From contig JBECUI020000027.1 in the NCBI GenBank assembly GCA_040954595.2, positions 62,001 through 126,000 on the forward strand: 64,000 nucleotides of DNA, in the 5' to 3' direction. Shown one piece after another: positions 18,638-64,000 of this stretch (the first letter of the stretch is position 1; each line of letters begins with the position of its first letter). The stretch is from Balanoglossus misakiensis (taxonomy: Eukaryota; Animalia; Hemichordata). Position numbers and translations under genes: made by a program. Under the pieces are notes generated by a model. It saw only the letters and a list, made by a program, of their open reading frames with translations. It made no database searches and was not told where the DNA came from.

Positions 18638-19651
18638 ATGAAAAAAGTAGTTATTTTGCTTTGTATGATTTTCGTTTCCTTCGTTGCCTTTGCTGCCGGT
18701 AGTCAGGCAACTGGCCCCAAGCCTGAATCCGAATGGAAGATTGCCTTGGTACCCAAGGACAGTACCAATGCCTGGTTTGTCCGAATGGAAGTTGGTGTTA
18801 AGGAATTTGCTGCCGAGACAGGTTTAAATGTCTTTCAGAAGGGTCCAGCAAAAACTGATGCCGCTATGCAGGTTCAGGTGATTCAAGACCTCATTGCCCA
18901 GGGTGTGGATGCTCTTGCTGTGGTGCCCGTTGATCCTGCGGCCCTGGAACCCATTTTAGGAGAGGCTTTGGATAAAGGCATTGTTGTCGTTACCCATGAA
19001 GCATCCTTTCAAGAAAACACCATGTATGACATCGAAGCCTTTGTGAATGCTGATTATGGTGCTTTTATTATGGACAATCTGGCCAAGGCCATGGGGGGAA
19101 GTGGAATCTACACTACCATGGTTGGACATGTGACGAATGCTTCTCATAACGAATGGGCCGACGGTGGTGTGGCTCATCAAGAGATGACCTATCCCAATAT
19201 GAAACTTCTTGAAAGTGAACTACGGGTAGAATCGGAAGACAACATGGAAAGAGCGTACGAAAAGGCTAAGGAGCTGTTCAAAAAATACCCCGATCTAAAA
19301 GGGATTATGGGAACTTCCTCTAAAGATGCCCCTGGTATTTCCAGAGCTATCGAAGAGATGGGTCTTAAGGATAAGGTCTTTGTAGCTGGTACAGGTCTTG
19401 TTTCCGAATGCCGCCCCTTCCTGGAAAGCGGGACGCTCCAATATATCACCCTTTGGGATCCTAAAGATGCTGGCTATGCCATGGTCAGCTTGGCTGTCAA
19501 GATTCTAAGAGGTGAAACCATTGCCAACGGTCTGGATTTGGGAGTTCAGGGTTACAATAACATGAACTTTGCTCCCGGTTCTGATAAGGTTCTCGTGGGG
19601 GCCGGATGGATTGTGATGACCAAAGACAATATGGATCAATACAATTTCTAA
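18638..19651 (+). CDS. Sugar ABC substrate-binding protein (RhaS/LsrB-like)
   Basis: MKK signal peptide after AGAGGT RBS; VPKDSTNAWFVRM, QVIQDLIAQGVDA, TLWDP; the ORF track start at 18584 is probably too long. Confidence 0.9.
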   Translation: MKKVVILLCMIFVSFVAFAAGSQATGPKPESEWKIALVPKDSTNAWFVRMEVGVKEFAAETGLNVFQKGPAKTDAAMQVQVIQDLIAQGVDALAVVPVDPAALEPILGEALDKGIVVVTHEASFQENTMYDIEAFVNADYGAFIMDNLAKAMGGSGIYTTMVGHVTNASHNEWADGGVAHQEMTYPNMKLLESELRVESEDNMERAYEKAKELFKKYPDLKGIMGTSSKDAPGISRAIEEMGLKDKVFVAGTGLVSECRPFLESGTLQYITLWDPKDAGYAMVSLAVKILRGETIANGLDLGVQGYNNMNFAPGSDKVLVGAGWIVMTKDNMDQYNF

Positions 19652-24295: not shown

Positions 24296-24401
24296 AGTCA
24301 GTCATCCTGAAATAGTTGCTTACCCTTTTAACATTCCCACAACTTCTTAGAGAAAATTTGAGGGTAGTGAGAATCGTATTTCAGAACTCCATAGTCTTCT
24401 G

Positions 24402-27400
24402 GGTAGTGTTTAAAAATTGCGCAGATTCTAAAAAGGCAAAAAATGTCCTCCAAAGTTGAAATGGAATCGAATGCAAAACCATGCACACGGAGGACAAAAT
24501 GAGGTCAGAAAAAGACCCCTCGGGAAAGAGCATACAGATTGATGAAGGTCTCCTACAGAGCAGCCAAATGCTTAAAGAAACCGTAGGAGGAAACCTTGAA
24601 TGCCATGCTCAATGCGGAGGCAGATCCTTTACTTCAGGCTGAAAAATACGAACCTACGGATGCACAAAAAGTTACTCGTGCCGGACATTACACCAGGAAG
24701 TTGGAGATCACTGCTTTCAAGAGTAGGGACAGGTCGCGACCTGTCCCTACTTCGGCTTCCATTTGAAACAACAATTATTGAGCGTTATAAACGCCGGGAA
24801 ACATCCGTTGAAGAAGCCTTGGCCCTTTGGGGAAGCAAGGTAAAGCCCTGGGACAATGAGCAATTTGAACCAGGATCTCTTAGTAGGGACAGGTCGCGAC
24901 CTGTCCCTACTTCGGCAGCGACATAGTTGGATACGGAAAGGCTGTATTCGTTTTCTGCAATTTCCTTATTGTATACTAGTTTTGCGAGGTGTTTAATTGG
25001 TAGTGTTTAAAAATTGCGCAGATTCTAAAAAGGCAAAAAATGTCCTCCAAAGTTGAAATGGAATCAAAAGCAAAACCATGCACACGGAGGACAAAATGAG
25101 GTCAGAAAAGACCCCACGGGAAAGAGCATACAGATTGATGAAGGTCTCCTACAGAGCAGCCAAATGCTTAAAGAAACCGTAGGAGGAAACCTTGAATGCC
25201 ATGCTCAATGCGGAGGCAGATCCTTTACTTCAGGCTGAAAAATACGAACCTACGGATGCACAAAAAGATACTCGTGCCGGACATTACACCAGGAAGTTGG
25301 AGATCACTGCTTTCAAGAGCAGGGACAGGTCGCGACCTGTCCCTACTTCGGCTTCCATTCGAAACAGCAATTATTGAGCGTTATAAACGCCGGGAAACAT
25401 CCGTTGAAGAAGCCTTAGTTGAAGTGTATTTAGCTGGTGTTTCAGTGCGCCGAGTTAAAAATATTACCGAGGCGCACTTGGGGGAAGCAAGGTAAAGCCC
25501 TGGGACAATGAGCAATGTGAACCAGGATCTCTTAGTAGGGACAGGTCGCGACCTGTCCCTACTTCGGCAGCGACATAGTTGGATACGGAAAGGCTGTATT
25601 CGTTTTCTGCAATTTCCTTATTGTATACTAGTTTTGCGAGGTGTTTAATTGGTAGTGTTTAAAGAATTGCGCAGATTCTAAAAAGGCAAAAAATGTCCTC
25701 CAAAGTTGAAATGGAATCGAATGCAAAACCATGCACACGGAGGACAAAATGAGGTCAGAAAAAGACCCCACGGGAAAGAGCATACAGATTGATGAAGGTC
25801 TCCTACAGAGCAGCCAAATGCTTAAAGAAACCGTAGGAGGAAACCTTGAATGCCATGCTCAATGCGGAGGCAGATCCTTTACTTCAGGCTGAAAAATACG
25901 AACCTACGGATGCACAAAAAGATACTCGTGCTGGACATTACACCAGGAAGTTGGAGATCACTGCTTTCAAGAGCAGGGACAGGTCGCGACCTGTCCCTAC
26001 TTCGGCTTCCATTTGAAACAGCAATTATTGAGCGTTATAAACGCCGGGAAACATCCGTTGAAGAAGCCTTGGCCCTTTGGGGAAGCAAGGTAAAGCCCTG
26101 GGACAATGAGCAATTTGAACCAGGATCTCTTAGTAGGGACAGGTCGCGACCTGTCCCTACTTCGGCTTCCATTCGAAACAGCAATTATTGAGCGTTATAA
26201 ACGCCGGGAAACATCCGTTGAAGAAGCCTTGGTCCTTTGGGGAAGGCAAGGTAAAGCCCTGGGACAATGAGCAATTTGAACCAGGATCTCTTAGTAGGGA
26301 CAGGTCGCGACCTGTCCCTACTTCGGCAGCGACATAGTTGGATACGGAAAGGCTGTATTCGTTTTCTGCAATTTCCTTATTGTATACTAGTTTTGCGAAG
26401 TGTTTAATTGGTAGTGTTTAAAAATTGCGCAGATTCTAAAAAGGCAAAAAATGTCCTCCAAAGTTGAGATGGAATCGAATGCAAAACCATTCACACGGAG
26501 GACAAAATGAGGTCAGAAAAAGACCCCTCGGGAAAGAGCATACAGATTGATGAAGGTCTCCTACAGAGCAGCCAAATGCTTAAAGAAACCGTAGGAGGAA
26601 ACCTTGAATGCCATGCTCAATGCGGAGGCAGATCCTTTACTTCAGGCTGAAAAATACGAACCTACGGATGCACAAAAAGTTACTCGTGCCGGACATTACA
26701 CCAGGAAGTTGGATATCACTGCTTTCAAGAGTAGGGACAGGTCGCGACCTGTCCCTACTTCGGCTTCCATTCGAAACAGCAATTATTGAGCGTTATAAAC
26801 GCCGGGAAACATCCGTTGAAGAAGCCTTGGCCCTTTGGGGAAGCAAGGTAAAGCCCTGGGACAATGAGCAATGTGAACCAGGATCTCTTAGTAGGGACAG
26901 GTCGCGACCTGTCCCTACTTCGGCAGCGACATAGTTGGATACGGAAAGGCTGTATTCGTTTTCTGCAATTTCCTTATTGTATACTAGTTTTGCGAGGTGT
27001 TTAATTGGTAGTGTTTAAAAATTGCGCAGATTCTAGAAAGGCAAAAAATGTCCTCCAAAGTTGAAATGGAATCGAATGCAAAACCATGCACACGGAGGAC
27101 AAAATGAGGTCAGAAAAAGACCCCACGGGAAAGAGCATACAGATTGATGAAGGTCTCCTACAGAGCAGCCAAATGCTTAAAGAAACCGTAGGAGGAAACC
27201 TTGAATGCCATGCTCAATGCGGAGGCAGATCCTTTACTTCAGGCTGAAAAATACGAACCTACGGATGCACAAAAAGATACTCGTGCTGGACATTACACCA
27301 GGAAGTTGGAGATCACTGCTTTCAAGAGCAGGGACAGGTCGCGACCTGTCCCTACTTCGGCTTCCATTTGAAACAGCAATTATTGAGCGTTATAAACGCC

Positions 27401-28956
27401 GGGAAACATCCGTTGAAGAAGCCTTGGCCCTTTGGGGAAGCAAGGTAAAGCCCTGGGACAATGAGCAATTTGAACCAGGATCTCTTAGTAGGGACAGGTC
27501 GCGACCTGTCCCTACTTCGGCAGCGACATAGTTGGATACGGAAAGGCTGTATTCGTTTTCTGCAATTTCCTTATTGTATACTAGTTTTGCGAGGTGTTTA
27601 ATTGGTAGTGTTTAAAAATTGCGCAGATTCTAAAAAGGCAAAAAATGTCCTCCAAAGTTGAAATGGAATCAAAAGCAAAACCATGCACACGGAGGACAAA
27701 ATGAGGTCAGAAAAGACCCCACGGGAAAGAGCATACAGATTGATGAAGGTCTCCTACAGAGCAGCCAAATGCTTAAAGAAACCGTAGGAGGAAACCTTGA
27801 ATGCCATGCTCAATGCGGAGGCAGATCCTTTACTTCAGGCTGAAAAATACGAACCTACGGATGCACAAAAAGATACTCGTGCTGGACATTACACCAGGAA
27901 GTTGGAGATCACTGCTTTCAAGAGTAGGGACAGGTCGCGACCTGTCCCTACTTCGGCTTCCATTCGAAACAGCAATTATTGAGCGTTATAAACGCCGGGA
28001 AACATCCGTTGAAGAAGCCTTGGCCCTTTGGGGAAGCAAGGTAAAGCCCTGGGACAATGAGCAATTTGAACCAGGATCTCTTAGTAGGGACAGGTCGCGA
28101 CCTGTCCCTACTTCGGCAGCGACATAGTTGGATACGGAAAGGCTGTATTCGTTTTCTGCAATTTCCTTATTGTATACTAGTTTTGCGAGGTGTTTAATTG
28201 GTAGTGTTTAAAAATTGCGCAGATTCTAAAAAGGCAAAAAATGTCCTCCAAAGTTGAAATGGAATCAAAAGCAAAACCATGCACACGGAGGACAAAATGA
28301 GGTCAGAAAAAGACCCCACGGGAAAGAGCATACAGATTGATGAAGGTCTCCTACAGAGCAGCCAAATGCTTAAAGAAACCGTAGGAGGAAACCTTGAATG
28401 CCATGCTCAATGCGGAGGCAGATCCTTTACTTCAGGCTGAAAAATACGAACCTACGGATGCACAAAAAGTTACTCGTGCCGGACATTACACCAGGAAGTT
28501 GGATATCACTGCTTTCAAGAGTAGGGACAGGTCGCGACCTGTCCCTACTTCGGCTTCCATTTGAAACAACAATTATTGAGCGTTATAAACGCCGGGAAAC
28601 ATCCGTTGAAGAAGCCTTGGCCCTTTGGGGAAGCAAAATAAAGCCCTGGGACAATGAGCAATTTGAACCAGGATCTCTTAGTAGGGACAGGTCGCGACCT
28701 GTCCCTACTTCGGCTTCCATTTGAAACAACAATTATTGAGCGTTATAAACGCCGGGAAACATCCGTTGAAGAAGCCTTGGCCCTTTGGGGAAGGAAGGTA
28801 AAGCCCTGGGACAATGAGCAATGTGAACCAGGATCTCTTAGTAGGGACAGGTCGCGACCTGTCCCTACTTCGGCAGCGACATAGTTGGATACGGAAAGGC
28901 TGTATTCGTTTTCTGCAATTTCCTTATTGTATACTAGTTTTGCGAAGTGTTTAATT
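24402..28956 (+). repeat. Tandem array of 7 units (596-759 bp) of a degenerate IS256 left end with REP insertions
   Basis: Units start with GGTAGTGTTTAAA at 24402, 24999, 25651, 26410, 27007, 27604, 28200; each has a frameshifted IS256 5' fragment (LNAMLNAEAD..RAGHYTRKL..ERYKRRETSVEEAL) and 2-3 palindromes. Confidence 0.93.
24722..28869. repeat. 16 copies of the 30-bp REP-like palindrome AG(T/C)AGGGACAGGTCGCGACCTGTCCCTACT
   Basis: Starts at 24722, 24882, 25318, 25534, 25972, 26132, 26293, 26730, 26890, 27327, 27487, 27923, 28083, 28520, 28680, 28840. Confidence 0.9.
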
Positions 28957-50805: not shown

Positions 50806-51344
50806 AAATCATAAGTATAACAAAAGTAGTTCAAGTCGAACACGAAAAAGTTTTAATATTTTTCAAGAACACTTTATCTATGCTCAATTCTTCAAATCCT
50901 TGGATACTCTGGGAGGGATCCCCAGAAATCCGGGTAACTAAGGACAGTCACCACAATCACCAAGTCAGCCTTTAAAAATCTCCTCTAAACACCGTGCTTA
51001 TCCTAATGAGACCAGAAAACCAAGAAAAAGAGACCCTCTGCCTTACTGAATCCCAGAAGAAGTTTACAGAGGAAACAGCTCCTACGGCTTGTGAATCCAG
51101 GGGAAAGTTCTCAAAAAAACAGGCAATGGCTTCGAAGCTCTCTTCCCTAAAGGGAAAACCTCAAGTAAATTCTTCAGGCCAAATCTCTAAACCATACTCT
51201 ACAAACAATACCTCGAGAAAAACAGCATTACTTGCCACAAGCTAAAACCTTAATATCTTATCTTCCCTATCATATGCTATAAAATACATATAATGGAATA
51301 ATTCAATATTGTCTAAGAAGAAAACAACTGATATCTTAACCTCT

Positions 51345-52484
51345 ATGAAAATATTTGTCCTACCTTCTTGGTACCCTAACTTTTATCATACTTGGGGAAA
51401 TTATTTTCAGAATCACTCACTAGCAGCACAGAAAGCTGGAGTGGAGATAGTAACCGTCTTTCCAGCACATTACTCGCCCAAATGGCTTATCAAACACCCC
51501 GCAATCAAATACGGACATAGTAAAACTTCCCTACAGGGAATACCGGAGTTTCTCTATTATTTGCCTAAAACCCATATTACCCCCTTGGATACACATTTCA
51601 ATATTTCTGCAGGAAAAAAGGTTATTAATCGTGCCATAGCAGAAACAGGCTTACCGGATATTGTTCACCTACAGAGTTTTGGAAACGGCGATCTGGCCAT
51701 ATGGATGCAAGAAAAATTTTCAATCCCCTTTGTTCTTACAGAACACTTCTCTGGTTTTATCTGCGACAAGGTGCATGGTAGAAAAATGGAATTAGCGCAA
51801 AGGGTTTTTTCAAAAAGTTCCAGCAATACTGCCGTCAGCACTTCCTTTGCACGGCTACTACAGAACAAATTTAACCGCTCATGCTCCGTCATTCCTAACA
51901 CTGTAGATACCAATATCTTCCAGCCTACTGCTAACAAGGAAACAGAAGGCATACATTTTATTGCTATAGGCAACCTCTTCCCCGGAAAAAACTACCTTAC
52001 CTTAGTGCAAGCATTCTACCAATTCCAACTGTCCCATCAAAACAGCCACCTTAGCATCATTGGCAGGGGGTCTGAATATAACAAACTTGCTGCTTTGGTT
52101 CATCACCACAAAATAAAACAAAAGGTCTCAATTCTTCGCGAATACCTGCCTCCAAGCTCTATTAGTCGTAAACTCAATCAAAGCACCGCCTTAATAATAT
52201 CCAGCACGATTGAGACCTTTGGAGTAACCGCCATTGAAGCAGGAAGCATAGGCCTGCCGGTATTAACTACAGCTTGCGGTGGACCGGAAGACATTATTAC
52301 CAACCCGAAGCTAGGGATTATTATAGAAAACCATAGTGCTTCTGCACTCGTGCAGGGCATGCACGATATTAGCGAAAAGACATGGGATAGCCAGTATATA
52401 CGACAGCATACAATAGAGACCTATTCCCTGCATGCCGTCGGCAAAAAACTCCGCAGAGTCTTTGAATCTGTACTAAGCTCATAG
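51345..52484 (+). CDS. Glycosyltransferase family 4
   Basis: LPSWYP, PDIVHLQS, VLTEH, IPNTVD, ETFGVTAIEA..GLPV..T.CGGPE. Confidence 0.9.
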   Translation: MKIFVLPSWYPNFYHTWGNYFQNHSLAAQKAGVEIVTVFPAHYSPKWLIKHPAIKYGHSKTSLQGIPEFLYYLPKTHITPLDTHFNISAGKKVINRAIAETGLPDIVHLQSFGNGDLAIWMQEKFSIPFVLTEHFSGFICDKVHGRKMELAQRVFSKSSSNTAVSTSFARLLQNKFNRSCSVIPNTVDTNIFQPTANKETEGIHFIAIGNLFPGKNYLTLVQAFYQFQLSHQNSHLSIIGRGSEYNKLAALVHHHKIKQKVSILREYLPPSSISRKLNQSTALIISSTIETFGVTAIEAGSIGLPVLTTACGGPEDIITNPKLGIIIENHSASALVQGMHDISEKTWDSQYIRQHTIETYSLHAVGKKLRRVFESVLSS

Positions 52485-53092: not shown

Positions 53093-54590
53093 TTAATTAT
53101 CCAAAATAATCAATTCGAACACATGAAATTGTGGCATATAGTCATCAACAGAGAACCTCCAGGTACCCTCTAGTGACGTTACTATAGTGGGAATTTGTAG
53201 GCAAAAATAGGTATTGGGTCTACTTCCAAAAGCTGTTTCATCTCCCAATACATCAGCATTAACAACTGTACTACCAAAAATACCATATCCATCAGATATG
53301 ACGCTCAGTGTGGGTGTTTCTTGAGTGTAATAAGGGGAAACGTTTTTCGTAGCATAAGTCCTTATTACACCTGGAATGATTATTGTTTGTCCCAAATATG
53401 CTTTAACGTCTCTTCCTATGCTTCCCCAATCCTGAGATTCTGCCAAGGTGGTAGCGATTGATAGGGATTGATCACTTTTGTATTGCGATCCACCCTCATA
53501 TTCTATGCCCATATACAGGTTGTATTCTGTTTCCGGAGTAAGATTTAAAATGGGCATCCATTGAGCTTTGTTTTTTTGCAAATTATACGTTTGCCACAAA
53601 GGGGTAGCTGCCTTTAAAGCCCCTATATCTACGGGAGCTGAGGCAGTTTTGGGCAGGGCAATAGCGTATATAACAGCATTTTGTACATCCACCTGCAGTT
53701 CGGCGTAACCTACCCAGAGGTAAGAACCGGGTTGTGTATGATCGTTCATATCACCAGTAGAAAAAGTTAAAAAAGGAGTATAGCGAAGGCGCAGAATATA
53801 TTCTCCAATAGTTCCGTTTTCGGCAGTAATAACTACGGTTTGGTCTTCTTCCACTACGGCAAAATCCTCTTTCAATAAAGGAATATTGAGTGCTGACAAA
53901 TTTGTTTGTGGTTCCCCGTCCAATGACAGCGTAGCATTTTGGGAGATTTCAAAGGATAGACCCACGACATCAGCCGTGGTGTTATAATCGTAATTGACCT
54001 GAATTGTCCTATTAGAAAATTCAACCACTACAGAAGGATCTAAAGAAGACACACCGGCAATAAGGGCTTCTGTATTCGGAATATAAACTATTTTTAGCGT
54101 GTACTCATTGATCGTTTGTCCGTCTTCGGCAATTACCTTTATGAGAAGGGTTTTACTTGAGGTTAAATCAAAAGTGTATTGATTGTTATCGACGAGTGTT
54201 CCATCTATTTCCAGGCTAGCTCCAGCTGAGATGTCGAACATAAGGGTAGCGTTGTTTATTTCCGTTTCATAGGAACGTGTAAGTGTGATGATTTTCTGAC
54301 CTTCATCAAAATCGACAGCAGTCTGCATTGTTTCGTCGGTCAAACTGACCGTGGAAATGGCTGCTTGGTCCGACTTAGGCAGGTTACAGGAGAAAAGAAC
54401 CATGACTATTCCGAGAACAAGAGAGGCAAAACTGAGCTTATGCCGGATTAACTTAGATAACGATCTTCGTGCGCGTGGAGGGGGGTGAGTGAGTGAGTGA
54501 GTGAGTGAGTGAGTGAGTGAGTGAGTGAGTGAGTGAGTGAGTGAGTGAGTTTTTACTCACTTCACAGCCGTTTTGATGGATATGTTTCAT
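53093..54590 (-). CDS. Phase-variable surface lipoprotein (locus 1; two cadherin-like/DUF5018-type domains plus FN3-like domain), out of frame
   Basis: True ATG at 54590 behind GAGGA; (ACTC)16 in the leader; signal RRSLSKLIRHKLSFASLVLGIVMVLFSC; ATG-to-body distance 187 nt; two V.AE.G...EY.L motifs. Confidence 0.8.
54487..54550 (-). repeat. (ACTC)16 simple sequence repeat in the leader of locus 1
   Basis: 64 nt of GAGT on the + strand; G6 tract adjacent. Confidence 0.97.
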
Positions 54591-54682: not shown

Positions 54683-54889
54683 CACCCTTTCCTTGTTTGT
54701 CTATTTTTTTGCTTCTAGGGGGGATAGTGCGGAGCTTGGTTTATGGTTCAATCGGCCTAGGATTCCTGAACTTGCCTGAACCTTTTTAAAAAGGCAGCAC
54801 CTAAGCGATGTCTTGGGGGAAGCGATTGGTTATTCTTAGTCCGATTCCGCCATCTGGAGGCTGGGGCGGGGCCTTAAGGGTTGGCGGGC

Positions 54890-55557
54890 CCTACCTCCCG
54901 GGCCGCCGGGGGCTAAACCGAGCCACACAGCCCCGGGGACGCCGACTCCCGAAGCGGCACCGGCATCGCTGGACCGAAGCAGGCGGGGCCTTAAAGTTTA
55001 GTGCCCACTACCCTCCGGGCCGCCAGGGGCTAAACCGAACCACACAGCCTCGGGGACGACGCCTCACGAAGCGGCACCAGCATCGCTGGACCGAAGCAGG
55101 CGGGGCCTTAAAGTTTAGTGCCCCAGGGCCTGCCGGGGCTAAACCGAACCACACAGCCTCGGGGAGGCCGCCTCACGAAGCGGCACCGGCATCGCTGGAC
55201 CGACACAGGCGGGGCCTTAAAGTTTAGTGCCCCCGGGCCGCCGGGGCTAAACCGAGCCACACAGCCTCGGGGAGACCGCCTCACGAAGCGGCACCGGCAT
55301 CGCTGGACCGAAGCAGGCGGGGCCTTAAAGTTTCGTGCCCACTACCCTCCGGGCCCGCCGGGGCTAAACCGAAGACCACAGCCTCGGGGACGCCGCCTCA
55401 CGAAGCGACACCAGCATCGCTGGACCGAAGCAGGCGGGGCCTTAAAGTTTAGTGCCCACTACCCTCCGGGCCGCCAGGGGCTAAACCGAACCACACAGCC
55501 TCGGGGAGGCCGCCTCACGAAGCGGCACCGGCATCGCTGGACCGAAGCAGGCGGGGC
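54890..55557. repeat. Array of 6 GC-rich 108-117 bp units
   Basis: GCTAAACCG anchors at 54912, 55029, 55138, 55246, 55363, 55480. Confidence 0.93.
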
Positions 55558-55563
55558 TCTTGT

Positions 55564-57181
55564 CTATTCGGTTAGATAATCGCTTTCTCCCGTGTAGTTT
55601 ACCGCCTTTACCCGGTATGTTAATCCCTGCCATTTCTGCACGTCATGAAAGCTAAGCTCCTGAGTATACTCACCTTCAGCGTTATATGCCGACACAACAC
55701 CAAGGCTCAGCCAGGACTCCCCTCCGTCTCTGCTGTACTCCACGACATAGCCCGAAGGCGCATCGGTATCCACCGTGATGGCGTTAGTAGAATAGGGTGT
55801 GTAGACTGTTCTTTGGTTAAGAGATGAAGCTGTCCAACTCAACTGGTAACCGTTGTTGTAATTCACACCTAAACCGCTCGGCGACGGGGGAACTAAGGGA
55901 CTCGTATAGATACTGTATAAGAAGTTAGCACGCTCCCCTGCAAAAAATAAGTCTATATACAGGTAAAATCTATAGGCAAAGTTTGGTAAATCTTCACTTT
56001 GGATAACATTCCTCTCATCTTCTAAAATATTAGCACCAATCGCTGGAGTCTCAAAATCTTTCCAATAGATATACTCACTGGCAGAATAGGCATCGACCCG
56101 ATTCTGACTAGCAAGACTACGGGGAGTCGCTCCATTGACCAAGCTTTCTTTTGCATCAAAAAATCTGAGGTCATAGAGGGAGGCATCGGCATCCGGACCC
56201 CCTGTAAATCCCTTTGTTACCCCAAAATTCCATATCATATCGGTAATGCTGGGGGCCAATGTCTCCACCGTCAATCGAGCATAGGCAGGAACATAACCGA
56301 GGTTATCTCTGTCGAACCAGGGCTTTGTGTATTCCTTTGTTAGTCCATAGAAGCCTCCTGTAGTTCCAACTAAGGAAAGGTTTAGTCTTGCGGCATAGGT
56401 GGAAACCTTAAGGGATGCAGAAGTTTGCGTTTCTCCCTGGGCGTTTTTGGAAACTATCCTGTAGTGATATTGCGTTCCCCCCTGTAGTGAATCATCTTCA
56501 TACGTTTCTGCAGAAAGATTCTCAGCCAGGGTTTCCCACCTTGTAGCGTCTACAGAGCGTTCAACGGCGTAACTTGAGGTGCTCGCGTCTATGCTCCGCC
56601 AGGCTATTTTTATCTGATCAGCGCTTACGAACATGGGCTGGAGACCGACCACGGGTAAGAACTGCGCTGGGGTAAAAGCTTTGATACTCTTTAACGTGTA
56701 GGTGCTTTCCTCTCCGTTCTCAGCAGTGATGATAATCGTGTAGCTTTGGTCATTATCTGAAAAGTCAAAACGATATTGGTTGGAGCTAATGATTTCGTCA
56801 TTGATAGATAGTGTGGCCTTCTGCGAGATATCAAAGATCAAAACAACATGGGTGGCTGTGGCTTCATCAGTGCGGCTAAGGGTGATGGTTTTGCTTGTTT
56901 CATCAAGTTCTACTCTGACGCCAAGGGTGTCGCTTTGGGGGGCGACCGTGTTAATGAAAGATTGATCCGACTTAGGTAGGTCACAGGAGAAAAAAACCAT
57001 GACTATTCCGAGAACAAGAGAGGCAAAACTGAGCTTATGCTGGATTAACTTAGATAACGATCTTCGTGCGCGTGGATGGGTGAGTGAGTGAGTGAGTGAG
57101 TGAGTGAGTGAGTGAGTGAGTGAGTGAGTGAGTGAGTGAGTTTTTACTCACTTCACAGCCGTTTTGATGGATATGTTTCAT
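55564..57181 (-). CDS. Phase-variable surface lipoprotein paralogue A (cadherin-like, FN3, variable domain, FN3), out of frame
   Basis: ATG 57181; (ACTC)15; lipobox FFSC; distance to body ATG 181 nt; FN3 motifs W....SY.VERS.D...W and Y.D..L..GT.Y.YRI. Confidence 0.85.
57082..57141 (-). repeat. (ACTC)15 simple sequence repeat in the leader of locus 2
   Basis: 60 nt of GAGT. Confidence 0.97.
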
Positions 57182-57483
57182 TGCATTTTCCTCATCTTAT
57201 ATAGAATTTATTTCAGGGTAAGCCAAGTACCCTTTAACCTTGATAGTTTAACACAGTTATTGCTGCTTATCTACACCCTTTCCTTGTTTGTCTATTTTTT
57301 TGCTCCTAGGGGGGGGGATAGTGCGGAGCCTAGTTGATGGTTCAATCGGCCTAGGATTCCTGAACTTGCCTGAACCTTTTTAAAAAGGCAGCACCTAAGC
57401 GATGTCTTGGGGGAAGCGATTGGTTATTCTTAGGCCGATTCCGCCATCTGGAGGCTGGGGCGGGGCCTTAAGGGTTGGCGGGC

Positions 57484-58020
57484 CCTACCTCCCGGGCCGC
57501 CGGGGGGCTAAACCGAGCCACAGAGCCTCGGGGACGACGCCTCACGGAGCGGCACCAGCATCGCTGGACCGAAGCAGGCGGGGCCTTAAAGTTTAGTGCC
57601 CCCGGGCCCGCCGGGGCTAAACCGAGCCACACAGACTCGGGGAGGCCCGCCTCACGAAGCGACACCAGCATCACTGGACCGACACAGGCGGGGCCTTAAA
57701 GTTTAGTGCCCCCGGGCCCGCCGGGGCTAAACCGAGCCACACAGACTCGGGGAGGCCGCCTCACGAAGCGACACCAGCATCGCTGGACCGAAGCAGGCGG
57801 GGCCTTAAAGTTTAGTGCCCCCGGGGCTGCCGGGGCTAAACCGAGCCACACAGCCTCGGGGACGACGCCTCCAGAAGCGGCACCAGCATCGCTGGACCGA
57901 AGCAGGCGGGGCCTTAAAGTTTAGTGCCCCCGGGCCCGCCAGGCTAAACCGAGCCACACAGCCTCGGGGAGACCGCCTCACGAAGCGGCACCGGCATCGC
58001 TGGACCGAAACAGGCGGGGC
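57484..58020. repeat. Array of 5 GC-rich 108-110 bp units
   Basis: Anchors at 57507, 57616, 57726, 57835, 57943. Confidence 0.93.
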
Positions 58021-58026
58021 TCTTGT

Positions 58027-59648
58027 CTATTCAGTTAGATAATCGCTTTCTCCCGTGTAGTTTACTGCCTTTACCCGGTATGTTAATCCCTGCCATTTCT
58101 GCACGTCATGAAAGCTAAGCTCCTGAGTATACTCACCTTCAGCGTTATATGCCGACACAACACCAAGGCTCAGCCAGGACTCCCCTCCGTCTCTGCTGTA
58201 CTCCACGACATAGCCCGAAGGCGCATCGGTATCCACCGTGATGGCGTTACTAGAATAGGGTGTGTAGACTGTTCTTTGGTTAAGAGATGAAGCTGTCCAA
58301 CTCAACTGGTAACCGTTGTTGTAATTCACTCCTAAACCGCTCGGCGACGGGGGAGCTAAGGGACTCGTATAGATACTGTATGAGAAATAAGCACTCTCCC
58401 CTGCAAAAAAGAAGTTTACAAATAGGTTAAATCTATAAGCAAAATTGGGTAAATCTTCACTTTGGATGACATTACTCTCATCTTCTAAAATATTAGTGCC
58501 AATATGTGGAATCTCAAAATCTTTCCAATAGATATACTCACTGGCAGAATAGGCATCGACCCGTTGCTGAGTAGCAAGAGCACGGTAAGTCGCTCCATTA
58601 ACCAAGCTTTCTTTTGCATCATAAAATTGGATTATATAGAGGAAGGCATCGTTATCCGCCCCCCCTGTAAATCCCTTTGTTACCCCAAAATTCCATATCA
58701 TATCGGTAATGCTGGGGGCCAATGTCTCCACCGTCAATCGAGAATAGGCAGGAGCATACTTGTTGGCTTCTGATAGATCAGCTACCCAGGGCTTTGTGTA
58801 TTCCTTTGTTAGTCCATAGGTCCCTCCGCTCCCTCCGCTTCCTCGAGAGTAAGTGGAAACCTTAAGGGATGCAGAAGTTTGCGTTTCTCCTTGGGAGTTT
58901 TTGGAAACTATCCTGTAGTGATATTGCGTTCCCGCCTGTAGTGAATCATCTTCATACGTTTCTGCAGAAAGATTCTCAGCCAGGGTTTCCCACGTTGTGC
59001 CATCTGCAGAGCGTTCCACGGCGTAACTTGAGGTACTTGCGTCTATGCTCCGCCAGGCTATTTTTACCTGATCAGCGCTTACGAACATGGGCTGGAGACC
59101 GACCACGGGTAAGAACTGCGCTGGGGTAAAAGCTTTGATATTCTTTAACGTGTAGGTGCTTTCCTCTCCATTCTCAGCAGTGATGATAATCGTGTAGCTT
59201 TGGTCATTATCTGAAAAGTCAAAACGATATTGGTTGGAGCTAATGATTTCGTCATTGATAGATAGCGTGGCCTTCTGCGAGATATCAAAGATCAAAACAA
59301 CATGGGTGGCTGTGGCTTCACCAGTGCGGCTAAGGGTGATGGTTTTGCTTGTTTCATCAAGTTCTACGGTGACGCCAAGGGTGTCGCTTTGGGGGGCGAC
59401 CGTGTTAATGAAAGATTGATCCGACTTAGGTAGGTCACAGGAGAAAAAAACCATGACTATTCCGAGAACAAGAGAGGCAAAACTGAGCTTATGCTGGATT
59501 AACTTAGATAACGATCTTCGTGCGCGTGGAGTGAGTGAGTGAGTGAGTGAGTGAGTGAGTGAGTGAGTGAGTGAGTGAGTGAGTGAGTGAGTGAGTGAGT
59601 GAGTGAGTTTTTACTCACTTCACAGCCGTTTTGATGGATATGTTTCAT
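58027..59648 (-). CDS. Phase-variable surface lipoprotein paralogue B, out of frame
   Basis: ATG 59648; (ACTC)20; distance to body ATG 194 nt; most divergent central domain. Confidence 0.85.
59529..59608 (-). repeat. (ACTC)20 simple sequence repeat in the leader of locus 3
   Basis: 80 nt of GAGT. Confidence 0.97.
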
Positions 59649-59949
59649 TGCATTTTCCTCATCTTATATAGAATTTATTTCAGGGTAAGCCAAGTACCCT
59701 TTAACCTTGATAGTTTAACACAGTTATTGCTGCTTATCTACACCCTTTCCTTGTTTGTCTATTTTTTTGCTCCTAGGGGGGGGATAGTGCGGAGCTTGGT
59801 TTATGGTTCAATCGGCCTAGGATTCCTGAACTTGTCTGAACCTTTTTAAAAAGGCAGCACCTAAGCGATGTCTTGGGGGAAGCAATTGGTTGTTCTTAGG
59901 CCGATTTCGCCATCTGGAGGCTGGGGCGGGGCCTTAAGGGTTGGCGGGC

Positions 59950-60820
59950 CCTACCTCCCGGGCCGCCAGGGGCTAAACCGAGCCACACAGACTCGGGGAC
60001 GACGCCTCACGAAGCGGCACCAGCATCGCTGGACCGACACAGGCGGGGCCTTAAAGTTTAGTGCCCCCGGGCTGCCGGGGCTAAACCGAAGACCACAGCC
60101 TCGGGGACGACGCCTCACGAAGCGACACCAGCATCGCTGGACCGAAGCAGGCAGGGCCTTAAAGTTTAGTGCCCCGGGCTGCCGGGGCTAAACCGAGCCA
60201 CACAGCCTCGGGGACGCCGACTCCAGAAGCGGCACCGGCATCGCTGGACCGACACAGGCGGGGCCTTAAAGTTTAGTGCCCCCGGGCTGCCGGGGCTAAA
60301 CCGAACCACACAGCCTCGGGGACGCCGACTCCCGAAACGGCACCGGCATCGCTGGACCGACACAGGCGGGGCCTCAAAGTTTAGTGCCCCGGGCTGCCGG
60401 GGCTAAACCGAGCCACACAGCCTCGGGGAGGCCGCCTCCAGAAGCGGCACCGGCATCGCTGGACCGAAGCAGGCGGGGCCTTAAAGTATAGTGCCCCCGG
60501 GCTGCCGGGGCTAAACCGAGCCACACAGCCTCGGGGAGGCCGCCTCACGAAGCGGCACCGGCATCGCTGGACCGAAACAGGCGGGGCCTTAAAGTTTAGT
60601 GCCCACTACCCCCGGGCCGCCGGGAGCTAAACCGAGCCACACAGCCTCGGGGACGACGCCTCACGAAGCGGCACCGGTATCGCTGGACCGAAGCAGGCGG
60701 GGCCTTAAAGTTTAGTGCCCACTACCCCCCGGGTCACCAGGGGCTAAACCGAGCCACACAGCCTCGGGGACGACGCCTCACGAAGCGGCACCAGCATCGC
60801 TGGACCGACACAGGCGGAGC
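59950..60820. repeat. Array of 8 GC-rich 107-117 bp units
   Basis: Anchors at 59972, 60080, 60187, 60295, 60402, 60510, 60626, 60743. Confidence 0.93.
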
Positions 60821-60826
60821 TCTTGT

Positions 60827-62445
60827 CTATTCGGTTAGATAATCGCTTTCTCCCGTGTAGTTTACCGCCTTTACCCGGTATGTTAATCCCTGCCATTTCT
60901 GCACGTCATGAAAGCTAAGCTCCTGAGTATACTCACCTTCAGCGTTATATGCCGACACAACACCAAGGCTCAGCCAGGACTCCCCTCCGTCTCTGCTGTA
61001 CTCCACGACATAGCCTGAAGGGGCGTCGGTATTCACGGTAATGGCGTTAGTAGAATAGGGTGTGTAGACTGTTTTTTGGTTAAGAGATGAAGCTGTCCAA
61101 CTCAACTGGTAACCGTTGTTGTAATTCACTCCTAACCCGCTCGGCGACTGGGGAGCTAAGGGACTCGTATAGATACTGTATAAGAAGTTAGCACGCTCCC
61201 CTGCAAAAAATAAGTCTATATACAGGACAAATCTATAGGCAAAATTTGGTAAATCTTCACTTTGGATAACATTACTCTCATCTTCTAAAATATTAGCGCC
61301 AATCTTTTGAGTCCCAAGATCTTTCCAATAGATATACTCACTGGCAGAATAGGCATCGACCCGTTGCTGAGTAGCAAGAGTACGGGGAGTCGCTCCATTG
61401 ACCAAGCTTTCTTTTGCATCAAAAAATGTGAGTTCATAGATGGAGGCATCGGCATGCGGCCCCCCTGTAAATCCCTTTGTTACCCCAAAATTCCATATCA
61501 TATCGGTAATGCTGGGGGCCAATGTCTCCACCGTCAATCGAGCATAGGCAGGAGCATAACCGAGGTTATCTCTGTCGAACCAGGGCTGCGTGTATTCCTT
61601 TGTTAGTCCATAGAAGCCTCCTGTAGTTCCAACTAAGGAAAGGTTTAGTCTTGCGGCATAGGTGGAAACCTTAAGGGATGCAGAAGTTTGCGTTTCTCCT
61701 TGGGCGTTTGTGGAAACTATCCTGTAGTGATATTGCGTTCCCGACTGTAGTGAATCATCTTCATACGTTTCTGCAGAAAGATTCTCAGCCAGGGTTTCCC
61801 ACCTTGTAGCGTCTGCAGAGCGTTCCACGGCGTAACTTAAAGTACTTGCGTCTATGCTCCGCCAGGCTATTTTTATCTGATCAGCGCTTACGAACATGGG
61901 CTGGAGACCGACCACGGGTAAGAACTGTGCTGGGGTAAAAACTTTGATACTCTTTAACGTGTAGGTGCTTTCCTCTCCGTTCTCAGCAGTGATGATAATC
62001 GTGTAGCTTTGGTCATTATCTGAAAAGTCAAAACGATATTGGTTGGAGCTAATGATTTCGTCATTGATAGATAGCGTGGCCTTCTGCGAGATATCAAAGA
62101 TCAAAACAACATGGGTGGCTGTGGCTTCATCAGTGCGGCTAAGGGTGATGGTTTTGCTTGTTTCATCAAGTTCTACGGTGACGCCAAGAGTGTCGCTTTG
62201 GGGGGCGACCGTGTTAATGAAAGATTGATCCGACTTAGGTAGGTCACAGGAGAAAAAAACCATGACTATTCCGAGAACAAGAGAGGCAAAACTGAGCTGG
62301 GGCCGGATTAACTTAGATAACGATCTTCGTACGCGTGGAGGGGGTGAGTGAGTGAGTGAGTGAGTGAGTGAGTGAGTGAGTGAGTGAGTGAGTGAGTGAG
62401 TGAGTTTTTACTCACTTCACAGCCGTTTTGATGGATATGTTTCAT
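60827..62445 (-). CDS. Phase-variable surface lipoprotein paralogue C, out of frame
   Basis: ATG 62445; (ACTC)15 plus G5 tract; distance to body ATG 182 nt. Confidence 0.85.
62346..62405 (-). repeat. (ACTC)15 simple sequence repeat in the leader of locus 4
   Basis: 60 nt of GAGT. Confidence 0.97.
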
Positions 62446-62747
62446 TGCATTTTCCTCATCTTATATAGAATTTATTTCAGGGTAAACCAAGTACCCTTTA
62501 ACCTTGATAGTTTAACACAGTTATTGCTGCTTATCTACACCCTTTCCTTGTTTGTCTATTTTTTTGCTCCTAGAGGGGGGATAGTGCGGAGCTTGGTTTA
62601 TGGTTCAATCGGCCTAGGATTCCTGAACTTGCCTGTACCTTTTTAAAAAGGCAGCACCTAAGCGATGTCTTGGGGGAAGCGATTGGTTATTCTTAGGCCG
62701 ATTCCGCCATCTGGAGGCTGGGGCGGGGCCTTAAGGTTAGGATGGGC

Positions 62748-62964
62748 CTTACCCCCCGGGCCGCCAGGGGCTAAACCGAGCCACACAGCCTCGGGGACGC
62801 CGCCTCACGGAGCGACACCAGCATCGCTGGACCGAAACAGGCGGGGCCTTAAAGTTTAGTGCCCACTACCCTCCGGGCCGCCAGGGGCTAAACCGAACCA
62901 CACAGCCCAGGGGAGACAACATCACGAAGCGGTACCGGCATCGCTGGACCGAAACAGGCGGGGC
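62748..62964. repeat. Array of 2 GC-rich 117 bp units
   Basis: Anchors at 62770 and 62887. Confidence 0.9.
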
Positions 62965-62970
62965 TCTTGT

Positions 62971-64000
62971 CTATTCGGTTAGATAATCGCTTTCTCCAGT
63001 GTAGTTTACTGCCTTTACCCGGTATATCAATCCCTGCCATCTCTGCACGTCATGAAAGCTAAGCTCCTGAGTATACTCACCTTCAGCGTTATATGCCGAC
63101 ACAACACCAAGGCTCAGCCAAGACTCCCCTCCGTCTCTGCTGTACTCCACGACATAGCCCGAAGGCGCATCGGTATCCACCGTGATGGCGTTACTAGAAT
63201 AGGGTGTGTAGACTGTTTTTTGGTTAAGAGATGAAGCTGTCCAACTCAACTGGTAACCGTTGTTGTAATTCACTCCTAAACCGCTCGGCGACGGGGGAAC
63301 TAAGGGACTCGTATAGATACTGTATAAGAATTTAGCACTATTCCCTGCAAAAAATAAGTCTATATACAGGTAAAATCTATAGGCAAAGTTTGGTAAATCT
63401 TCACTTTGGATAACATTCCTCTCATCTTCTAAAATATTAGTGCCACTATCTTGACTCCCAAAATCTTTCCAATAGATATACTCACTGGCAGAATAGGCAT
63501 CGACCCGATTCTGACTAGCAAGAGGACGGGGAGTCGCTCCATTGACCAAGCTTTCTTTTGCATCAAAAAAGTCGACTTGATAGAGGGAGGCATCGGCATG
63601 CGGCCCCCCTGTAAATCCCTTTGTTACCCCAAAATTCCATATCATATCGGTAATGCTGGGGGCCAATGTCTCCACCGTCAATCGAGCATAGGCAGGAGCA
63701 TAACCGAGGTTATATCTGTCGAACCAGGGCTTTGTGTATTCCTTTGTTAGTCCATAGGATTGTGCATCTCCAGCTAAGGAAATGTTTAGTCTTGCGGCAT
63801 AGGTGGAAACCTTAAGGGATGCAGAAGTTTGCGTTTCTCCTTGGGCGTTTTTGGAAACTATCCTGTAGTGATATTGCGTTCCCGACTGTAGTGAATCATC
63901 TTCATACGTTTCTGCAGAAAGATTCTCAGCCAGGGTTTCCCACGTTGTAGCGTCTGCAGAGCGTTCAACGGCGTAACTTGAGGTACTTGCGTCTATGCTC
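62971..64000 (-). CDS. Surface lipoprotein paralogue D, 5' end outside the window
   Basis: Frame stays open upstream of the ORF-track TTG at 63681 (..KVSTYAARLNISLAGDAQSYGLTKEY..) and the DNA aligns with paralogues A-C to the window edge. Confidence 0.88.
   Translation of the reverse strand, partial: SIDASTSSYAVERSADATTWETLAENLSAETYEDDSLQSGTQYHYRIVSKNAQGETQTSASLKVSTYAARLNISLAGDAQSYGLTKEYTKPWFDRYNLGYAPAYARLTVETLAPSITDMIWNFGVTKGFTGGPHADASLYQVDFFDAKESLVNGATPRPLASQNRVDAYSASEYIYWKDFGSQDSGTNILEDERNVIQSEDLPNFAYRFYLYIDLFFAGNSAKFLYSIYTSPLVPPSPSGLGVNYNNGYQLSWTASSLNQKTVYTPYSSNAITVDTDAPSGYVVEYSRDGGESWLSLGVVSAYNAEGEYTQELSFHDVQRWQGLIYRVKAVNYTGESDYLTE

Follow-up and report, generated by a model that had tools for sequence, protein, structure and literature searches.

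A tandem array of predicted spirochaete surface lipoprotein genes with out-of-frame ACTC leader tracts and a mosaic central domain

Long tetranucleotide tracts switch surface structures by phase variation at the contingency loci of Haemophilus influenzae, a member of another phylum whose likeness to the spirochaete array described here lies in its tetranucleotide switch tracts. The opa genes of Neisseria are complete genes present in multiple copies, whose reading frame is switched at a coding repeat within the leader peptide and whose short variable regions are shuffled by recombination (PMC3960869); in gonococci few of them are in frame at once, with a mean of 1.7 per isolate (PMC13183285). 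The Borrelia vls and vmp systems and Treponema pallidum tprK place variable regions between invariant blocks and vary by segmental gene conversion, and VlsE is a lipoprotein (PMC4534519). T. pallidum tprL shows phase variation through a promoter poly-G tract (PMC7864442), and the lpl cluster of Staphylococcus aureus consists of lipoprotein paralogues in tandem, among which recombination in conserved blocks causes reshuffling (PMC2568036). The mechanism class is one that is already well known.

The array analysed here lies in a 64-kb window, the whole stretch of DNA under study, and is like opa in its complete gene copies, its leader coding repeat and its recombining variable regions. It differs in that Opa is an eight-stranded outer-membrane beta-barrel encoded at dispersed loci with a CTCTT pentamer, whereas the array encodes in tandem a predicted lipoprotein with Ig/FN3 domains and carries an ACTC tetramer; homology between the two was not found. 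With vls, vmp and tprK it shares variable regions between invariant blocks in spirochaete surface proteins (predicted to be such here), but those systems use one expression site with silent donors, whereas each visible copy here has its own full leader and repeat. The likeness to tprL is simple-repeat phase variation, proposed here, of a spirochaete surface protein gene, although the tprL promoter homopolymer acts on transcription and the coding tetranucleotide of the array would act on the reading frame. The conserved unit of lpl, an intergenic region with the 5' part of the next gene, resembles the cassette that gene E has in common with A, B and C (see below), but the conserved centre and variable ends of lpl are the reverse of the array pattern, and the term 'simple repeat' has 0 occurrences in the available text of PMC2568036. 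No coding tetranucleotide switch in spirochaete lipoprotein leaders was found at the title and abstract level of a mainly open-access literature, including PMC11868660.

Array layout and host lineage

The host of the window is a spirochaete: the best named matches of its MurC are from Spirochaetaceae, at 57-58% identity, and the top identity among 401 spirochaete genomes is 51-52%, values low enough to indicate an uncultured lineage with no close relative among those genomes. A search with isocitrate dehydrogenase was uninformative on taxonomy. Four paralogues, A to D, are arranged head to tail on the minus strand in near-identical units spaced at 2.1-2.9 kb, with a fifth gene, E, beyond A; a family 4 glycosyltransferase gene (51309-52484, plus strand) is convergent with the end of the array. 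Window coordinates are as follows.

53093..54590, minus strand: gene E, with a leader cassette of the A/B/C type containing (ACTC)16; out of frame
55564-57000, minus strand: paralogue A, open reading frame
55564..57181, minus strand: paralogue A including leader, with ATG at 57181, (ACTC)15, signal peptide and Cys codon at 56983-56985; domain order Ig/cadherin-like, FN3, central domain, FN3-like; out of frame across the ACTC tract
55885..56397, minus strand: central variable domain of A
~56350-56394, 56296-56316, 56159-56197, 56101-56124, 56034-56055 and 55919-55965, minus strand: variable patches of A
58027-59454, minus strand: paralogue B, open reading frame
58027..59648, minus strand: paralogue B including leader, with ATG at 59648 and (ACTC)20; central domain the most divergent; out of frame
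58345..58851, minus strand: central variable domain of B
60827-62263, minus strand: paralogue C, open reading frame
60827..62445, minus strand: paralogue C including leader, with ATG at 62445, (ACTC)15 and then a short run of C; out of frame
61148..61660, minus strand: central variable domain of C
62971->64000, minus strand: paralogue D, its 5' part past the window end and its leader outside the window
63292..63801, minus strand: central variable domain of D
54865..55557: GC-rich repeat, 6 units, between the A stop and the E leader
57459..58020: GC-rich repeat, 5 units, between the B stop and the A leader
59925..60817: GC-rich repeat, 8 units, between the C stop and the B leader
62722..62964: GC-rich repeat, 2 units, between the D stop and the C leader

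The intergenic repeat has units of 107-118 bp with 68% GC, occurs in 2-8 tandem units per gap, and is absent elsewhere in the window. Its unit lengths break the frame, so that it is not read as coding, and overall it folds no better than shuffled sequences (z -1.68 to +1.05); that it serves as a recombination substrate is a guess. A separate set of tandem units, of about 600 bp, lies at ~24400-28900, each with a truncated transposase-like fragment and a GC-rich palindrome, and contains 160-bp sub-repeats; the transposase-like fragments are presumably IS256-like.

Pfam places FN3 at residues 124-198, with scores that pass the cut-off in B and C, and gives only FN3-like matches, and none to Opa, across A to D. 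The last domain of the paralogues is presumably FN3-like, on the basis of a W...Y...YRVKA pattern. Gene E has two cadherin-like domains, with 42% and 33% identity to domain 1 of A, and similarity to A was not detected in its C-terminal half. A search of the protein database with a whole paralogue gave one match, to FN3 only, and the central region (203-372) matched 0 of 526 candidates, these being of lengths 262-837 only. The central domain was likewise not found in genome, metagenome and viral contigs, in the Atlas, or in 401 genomes of the phylum, 37 of which gave matches with their best stretches within positions 26-219; 391 genomes of the order gave one spurious match, with stops, PDB sequences gave no match below E 0.5, and neither the central domain of A nor that of B matched Pfam. 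A representative search was swamped by FN3-repeat proteins and thus says nothing on this domain. Single-sequence AlphaFold2 predictions were too poor to use (pLDDT 37.2 for the mature protein and 30.3 for the central domain), and Foldseek with these low-pLDDT models returned nothing at E<=0.001.

The leader cassette and its ACTC tract

Upstream of A, B, C and E is a block in which a GAGG Shine-Dalgarno sequence, identical in all four, stands 8 nt before an ATG that is followed by 12 codons, an ACTC tract and a signal peptide. The first-pass annotation of the locus had recognized a hypervariable mosaic, which is real, and had overlooked both this putative repeat-tract switch and the fifth gene with its common leader. 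The tracts are:

54486..54549, minus strand: ACTC tract of E, 16 units
57080..57139, minus strand: ACTC tract of A, 15 units
59529..59608, minus strand: ACTC tract of B, 20 units
62344..62403, minus strand: ACTC tract of C, 15 units

Beyond these four there are no other ACTC tracts or long simple repeats in the 64 kb. Each of the four visible leaders thus has a perfect long tract, with a unit that is not a multiple of 3, within its 5' coding region, and the lengths differ among paralogues (15, 15, 16 and 20, with one assembled length per locus). The distance from ATG to Cys is 196, 209, 197 and 202 nt in A, B, C and E, respectively, which places all four out of frame, an outcome with a chance of 0.20 if one third of copies were on. 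On the coding strand ACTC is stop-free in every frame, and the opposite strand carries TGA. There is no alternative ATG, GTG or TTG in the coding frame ahead of the hydrophobic segment in A, B, C or E, and the sole in-frame ATG, five codons before the Cys, would yield no signal peptide; with the leaders out of frame, export of each protein would therefore depend on tract length. The listed open reading frame starts (MVFFSC) are unlikely starts, the leader lying about 200 nt upstream across the repeat tract, and an ATG five bases upstream was rejected because of a TGA at its third codon.

In all four genes the tract is followed by RARRSLSKLI.HKLSFASLVLGIVMV(F/L)FS-C, with small variants in C, in which a basic N-region, a hydrophobic H-region and a lipobox cysteine can be read by eye as RARRSLSKLIQHK-LSFASLVLGIVMVFFS-C. 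We take this to be a lipoprotein signal by the lipobox rule. No such rule was found in the accessible part of PMC12457778. With the tract left aside, the four leaders agree at 408-417 of 422-424 nt (96-98% identity), but mature domain 1 of E matches that of A at only 157 of 319 nt (42% at the protein level), indicating that the cassette has been homogenized or has moved independently of its passenger. Such out-of-frame tracts are typical of slipped-strand phase variation, which is likely here.

A G/C run of 6-9 bases that differs between copies lies ~125-135 nt upstream of each leader ATG (~54720, 57310, 59777 and 62575), and in C and E a C run directly follows the ACTC tract; both are possible second slippage sites. 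A sigma-70-like promoter or terminator was not found at the leaders, the leader pattern was absent among metagenome contigs, and Rfam gave no match of note.

With ACTC as the only tetranucleotide searched, (ACTC)8 is present in 3 of 401 genomes of the spirochaete phylum. All six tract sites in those genomes read as ACTC in the sense direction and lie a short way 5' of a gene, and five of them closely follow an ATG. The adjacent genes are methyltransferase-like in two genomes, G124 and G280 (two of these genes being Pfam-confirmed), and encode an Alg9-like mannosyltransferase in G385.

L117:17654-17713 and 18842-18913; L124 (G124:C9): ACTC tracts of G124
L121:5583-5662: ACTC tract of G280
L119:13385-13638: ACTC tract of G385, interrupted by an N gap; it follows an ATG and precedes the Alg9-like mannosyltransferase gene

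In the low-GC genomes G124 and G280, (ACTC)15-20 precedes tandem methyltransferase-like genes by ~55 nt and lies for the most part within a short upstream open reading frame that in one of three frames reaches or overlaps the gene start, which suggests a translational-coupling switch there rather than a frameshift.

Variability and mosaicism of the central domain

The variation described in the first-pass annotation, of short patches between near-identical flanks, is borne out in most respects, and all nine sets of quoted motifs match the alignment exactly as written. Among columns shared by all four paralogues, 57 of 170 are variable in the central domain, whereas the first FN3 has 7 variable columns of 66 and the FN3-like domain at the end has 6 of 108; D is cut by the window end and its N-terminus is thus not comparable. 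The variable columns cluster (34 adjacent pairs against 18.8 expected, p=5e-5), and variable sites at codon positions 1, 2 and 3 number 35, 29 and 26 in the centre and 4, 15 and 26 in the flanks.

Pooled pN/pS is 1.60 in the central domain (bootstrap CI 1.03-2.67) and 0.25 in the flanks (0.13-0.46; permutation p=0.0002), values obtained from pairs that are non-independent and under recombination that violates the test assumptions. The two regions have equal pS (0.072 vs 0.070) and a pN about 7-fold apart (0.115 vs 0.017). Removing the two indel loops gives a central ratio of 1.51 (CI 0.81-3.14), and removing B, which alone accounts for 52 of 95 singleton differences, gives 2.88 (CI 1.33-11.1). 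Minimal-change counts are 88 nonsynonymous to 17 synonymous in the centre (binomial p=0.037, or 0.14 without the loops) and 20 to 26 in the flanks. Taken together, the ratios and counts firmly show that purifying constraint has been lost in the central domain; positive selection, the diversifying selection that had been proposed, is likely but not proven, a ratio above 1 being marginal.

Within the domain, invariant blocks alternate with sites at which 3-4 residues occur, codon changes of more than one base fall mainly in the patches, and 40 columns are radical against 11 conservative. In three strand-like segments the radical changes tend, by inspection, to alternate with fixed or conservatively changed hydrophobics, a hint of one exposed sheet face. 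A surface role would fit the predicted lipoprotein signal and the Ig/FN3 stalks.

All three pairings of the paralogues occur, as had been claimed: 19 informative nucleotide sites, taken from 1008 gap-free columns, split as AD 7, AC 7 and AB 5. The motifs cited for these pairings are present, although two of them, YSTN and NQRT, belong to the C-terminal FN3-like domain rather than to the central one. No single tree suffices, there being 12 incompatible sites against 4.7-4.9 simulated (p 0.003-0.007; 300 simulations under each of three trees, with rate variation and recurrent mutation). The flanks alone have 3 against ~0.75 (p 0.035-0.047), and flanks and centre tested separately give p 0.03-0.05 each. 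Parallel change driven by selection could add to the count of incompatible sites. Sites with the same split do not cluster beyond chance (p=0.49), so no long conversion tracts are seen and exchanged tracts would be short or overlaid; recombination among copies, earlier invoked as gene conversion, is supported.

Contigs from two runs (X1 and X2) of one sample, with haplotypes read from table rows of differences, bear on the same sites, although this sample may be the window's own and thus not independent biology. One X1 contig of 99 nt differs from A five times, as often as C does there, and all four of the differences listed are those of C; another contig, 9 deep, has the letters of D at 56034-56045; and an X2 contig of 185 nt agrees with B at each of its 11 listed sites and joins all three splits. 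Several further X1 contigs show combinations absent from B, C and D, built from the same polymorphisms. The listed X1 contigs, of a kind that drops variants, include neither the allele of A itself at 56164-56192 nor that of E at 54217-54403. Shared blocks are represented by single contigs 91-108 deep, against 10.3 for unique flank, which suggests ~9-10 copies of the family with further alleles, with the proviso that depth is not copy number and mixed strains could contribute. There are X1 contigs at 53975-54403 that depart from E by 8 and 13 differences, a sign that additional E-like paralogues may exist in other parts of the genome.

Interpretation of the array

Our main reading, to which we assign a probability of about 0.7, is that the array encodes a tandem family of predicted spirochaete surface lipoproteins in which (ACTC)n frameshifts switch each gene and recombination between copies reshuffles a central domain that would face a binding partner. 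Slipped-strand frameshifting at the tract between start codon and signal peptide would reversibly turn each gene on or off, tract length would set which copies are translated, lipidated and displayed, and each cell would display only the subset with an in-phase tract; expression of the visible copies, none of which is in frame, is a presumption. The invariant Ig/FN3 domains would form a stalk and, with the near-identical cassettes, would provide homology for exchange between copies. Such exchange, perhaps by gene conversion or unequal crossing-over, would reshuffle the central-domain patches, and a host or phage partner would select new combinations on the predicted partner-facing domain. By analogy, with switching and a ligand both presumed, this would be a phase- and sequence-variable surface family that works like opa but is not an Opa.

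The out-of-frame state of all four visible leaders could also mean that they are silent donors feeding one expressed copy outside the window, where more copies are likely to lie, and short mosaic patches between invariant blocks do recall the segmental conversion of vlsE (PMC4534519). Within the window, however, cassettes of the promoterless or partial donor type are not seen: A, B, C and E each run to full length and each have their own upstream region, Shine-Dalgarno sequence and signal peptide, in leaders that are 96-98% identical. Flanks under purifying selection (pN/pS 0.25) and a matching tract in E, despite its mostly unrelated passenger, also count against a silent archive, which we consider unlikely. 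Relaxed constraint, in which surface loops of phase-variable adhesin copies drift and neutral recombination mixes them, would accord with a pN/pS interval that spans 1 without the indel loops and with over half of the singleton changes coming from B; but the ratio rises to 2.88 without B, invariant blocks alternate with 3-4-residue sites in one domain, and multi-base codon changes are concentrated in patches, so that drift too appears quite unlikely.

Chimeric assembly of repeats or mixed strains might have produced both mosaic and frameshifts, as the units are near-identical repeats of 2.1-2.9 kb, the listed contigs nowhere span the array and lack some alleles of the window, and X1 may be the window's own sample. 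Such an artefact is improbable, given that incompatible splits fall within 17 nt (columns 319-325), that the 185-nt X2 contig joins B-type letters of all three splits and the 99-nt X1 contig matches C's five differences, and that the mature coding regions are free of frameshifts. Patchy amino-acid hypervariability in a predicted ligand-binding domain would also be expected of targets of a diversity-generating retroelement, but whichever copy is taken as template, adenine is not favoured at the variable sites (A fraction 0.21-0.31), indels are present, and all 12 substitution types are seen; we regard this origin as very improbable. By eye, no reverse transcriptase was recognized in the open reading frame lists of the 64-kb window.

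Returning to the phase-variable, recombining family, a wider proposal is tentative, and we would sooner doubt than accept it: that the unit of ~500 bp comprising GC repeats, upstream region, ATG, ACTC tract and signal is a portable phase-variation-and-export cassette with varied passengers, producing an opa-like coat of ~10 lipoproteins with an undescribed binding fold, and that the sense-strand ACTC switch has gone unrecognized in several spirochaete lineages.

The spirochaete systems compared here use silent cassettes that recombine into one expression site, or a promoter poly-G tract; this lineage appears to have reached the solution of Neisseria opa independently, on a lipoprotein with an orphan domain. 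Standard annotation will miss such signal peptides. The array marks this uncultured spirochaete as likely to be under host or phage pressure, and constitutes a defined target for finding the binding partner.
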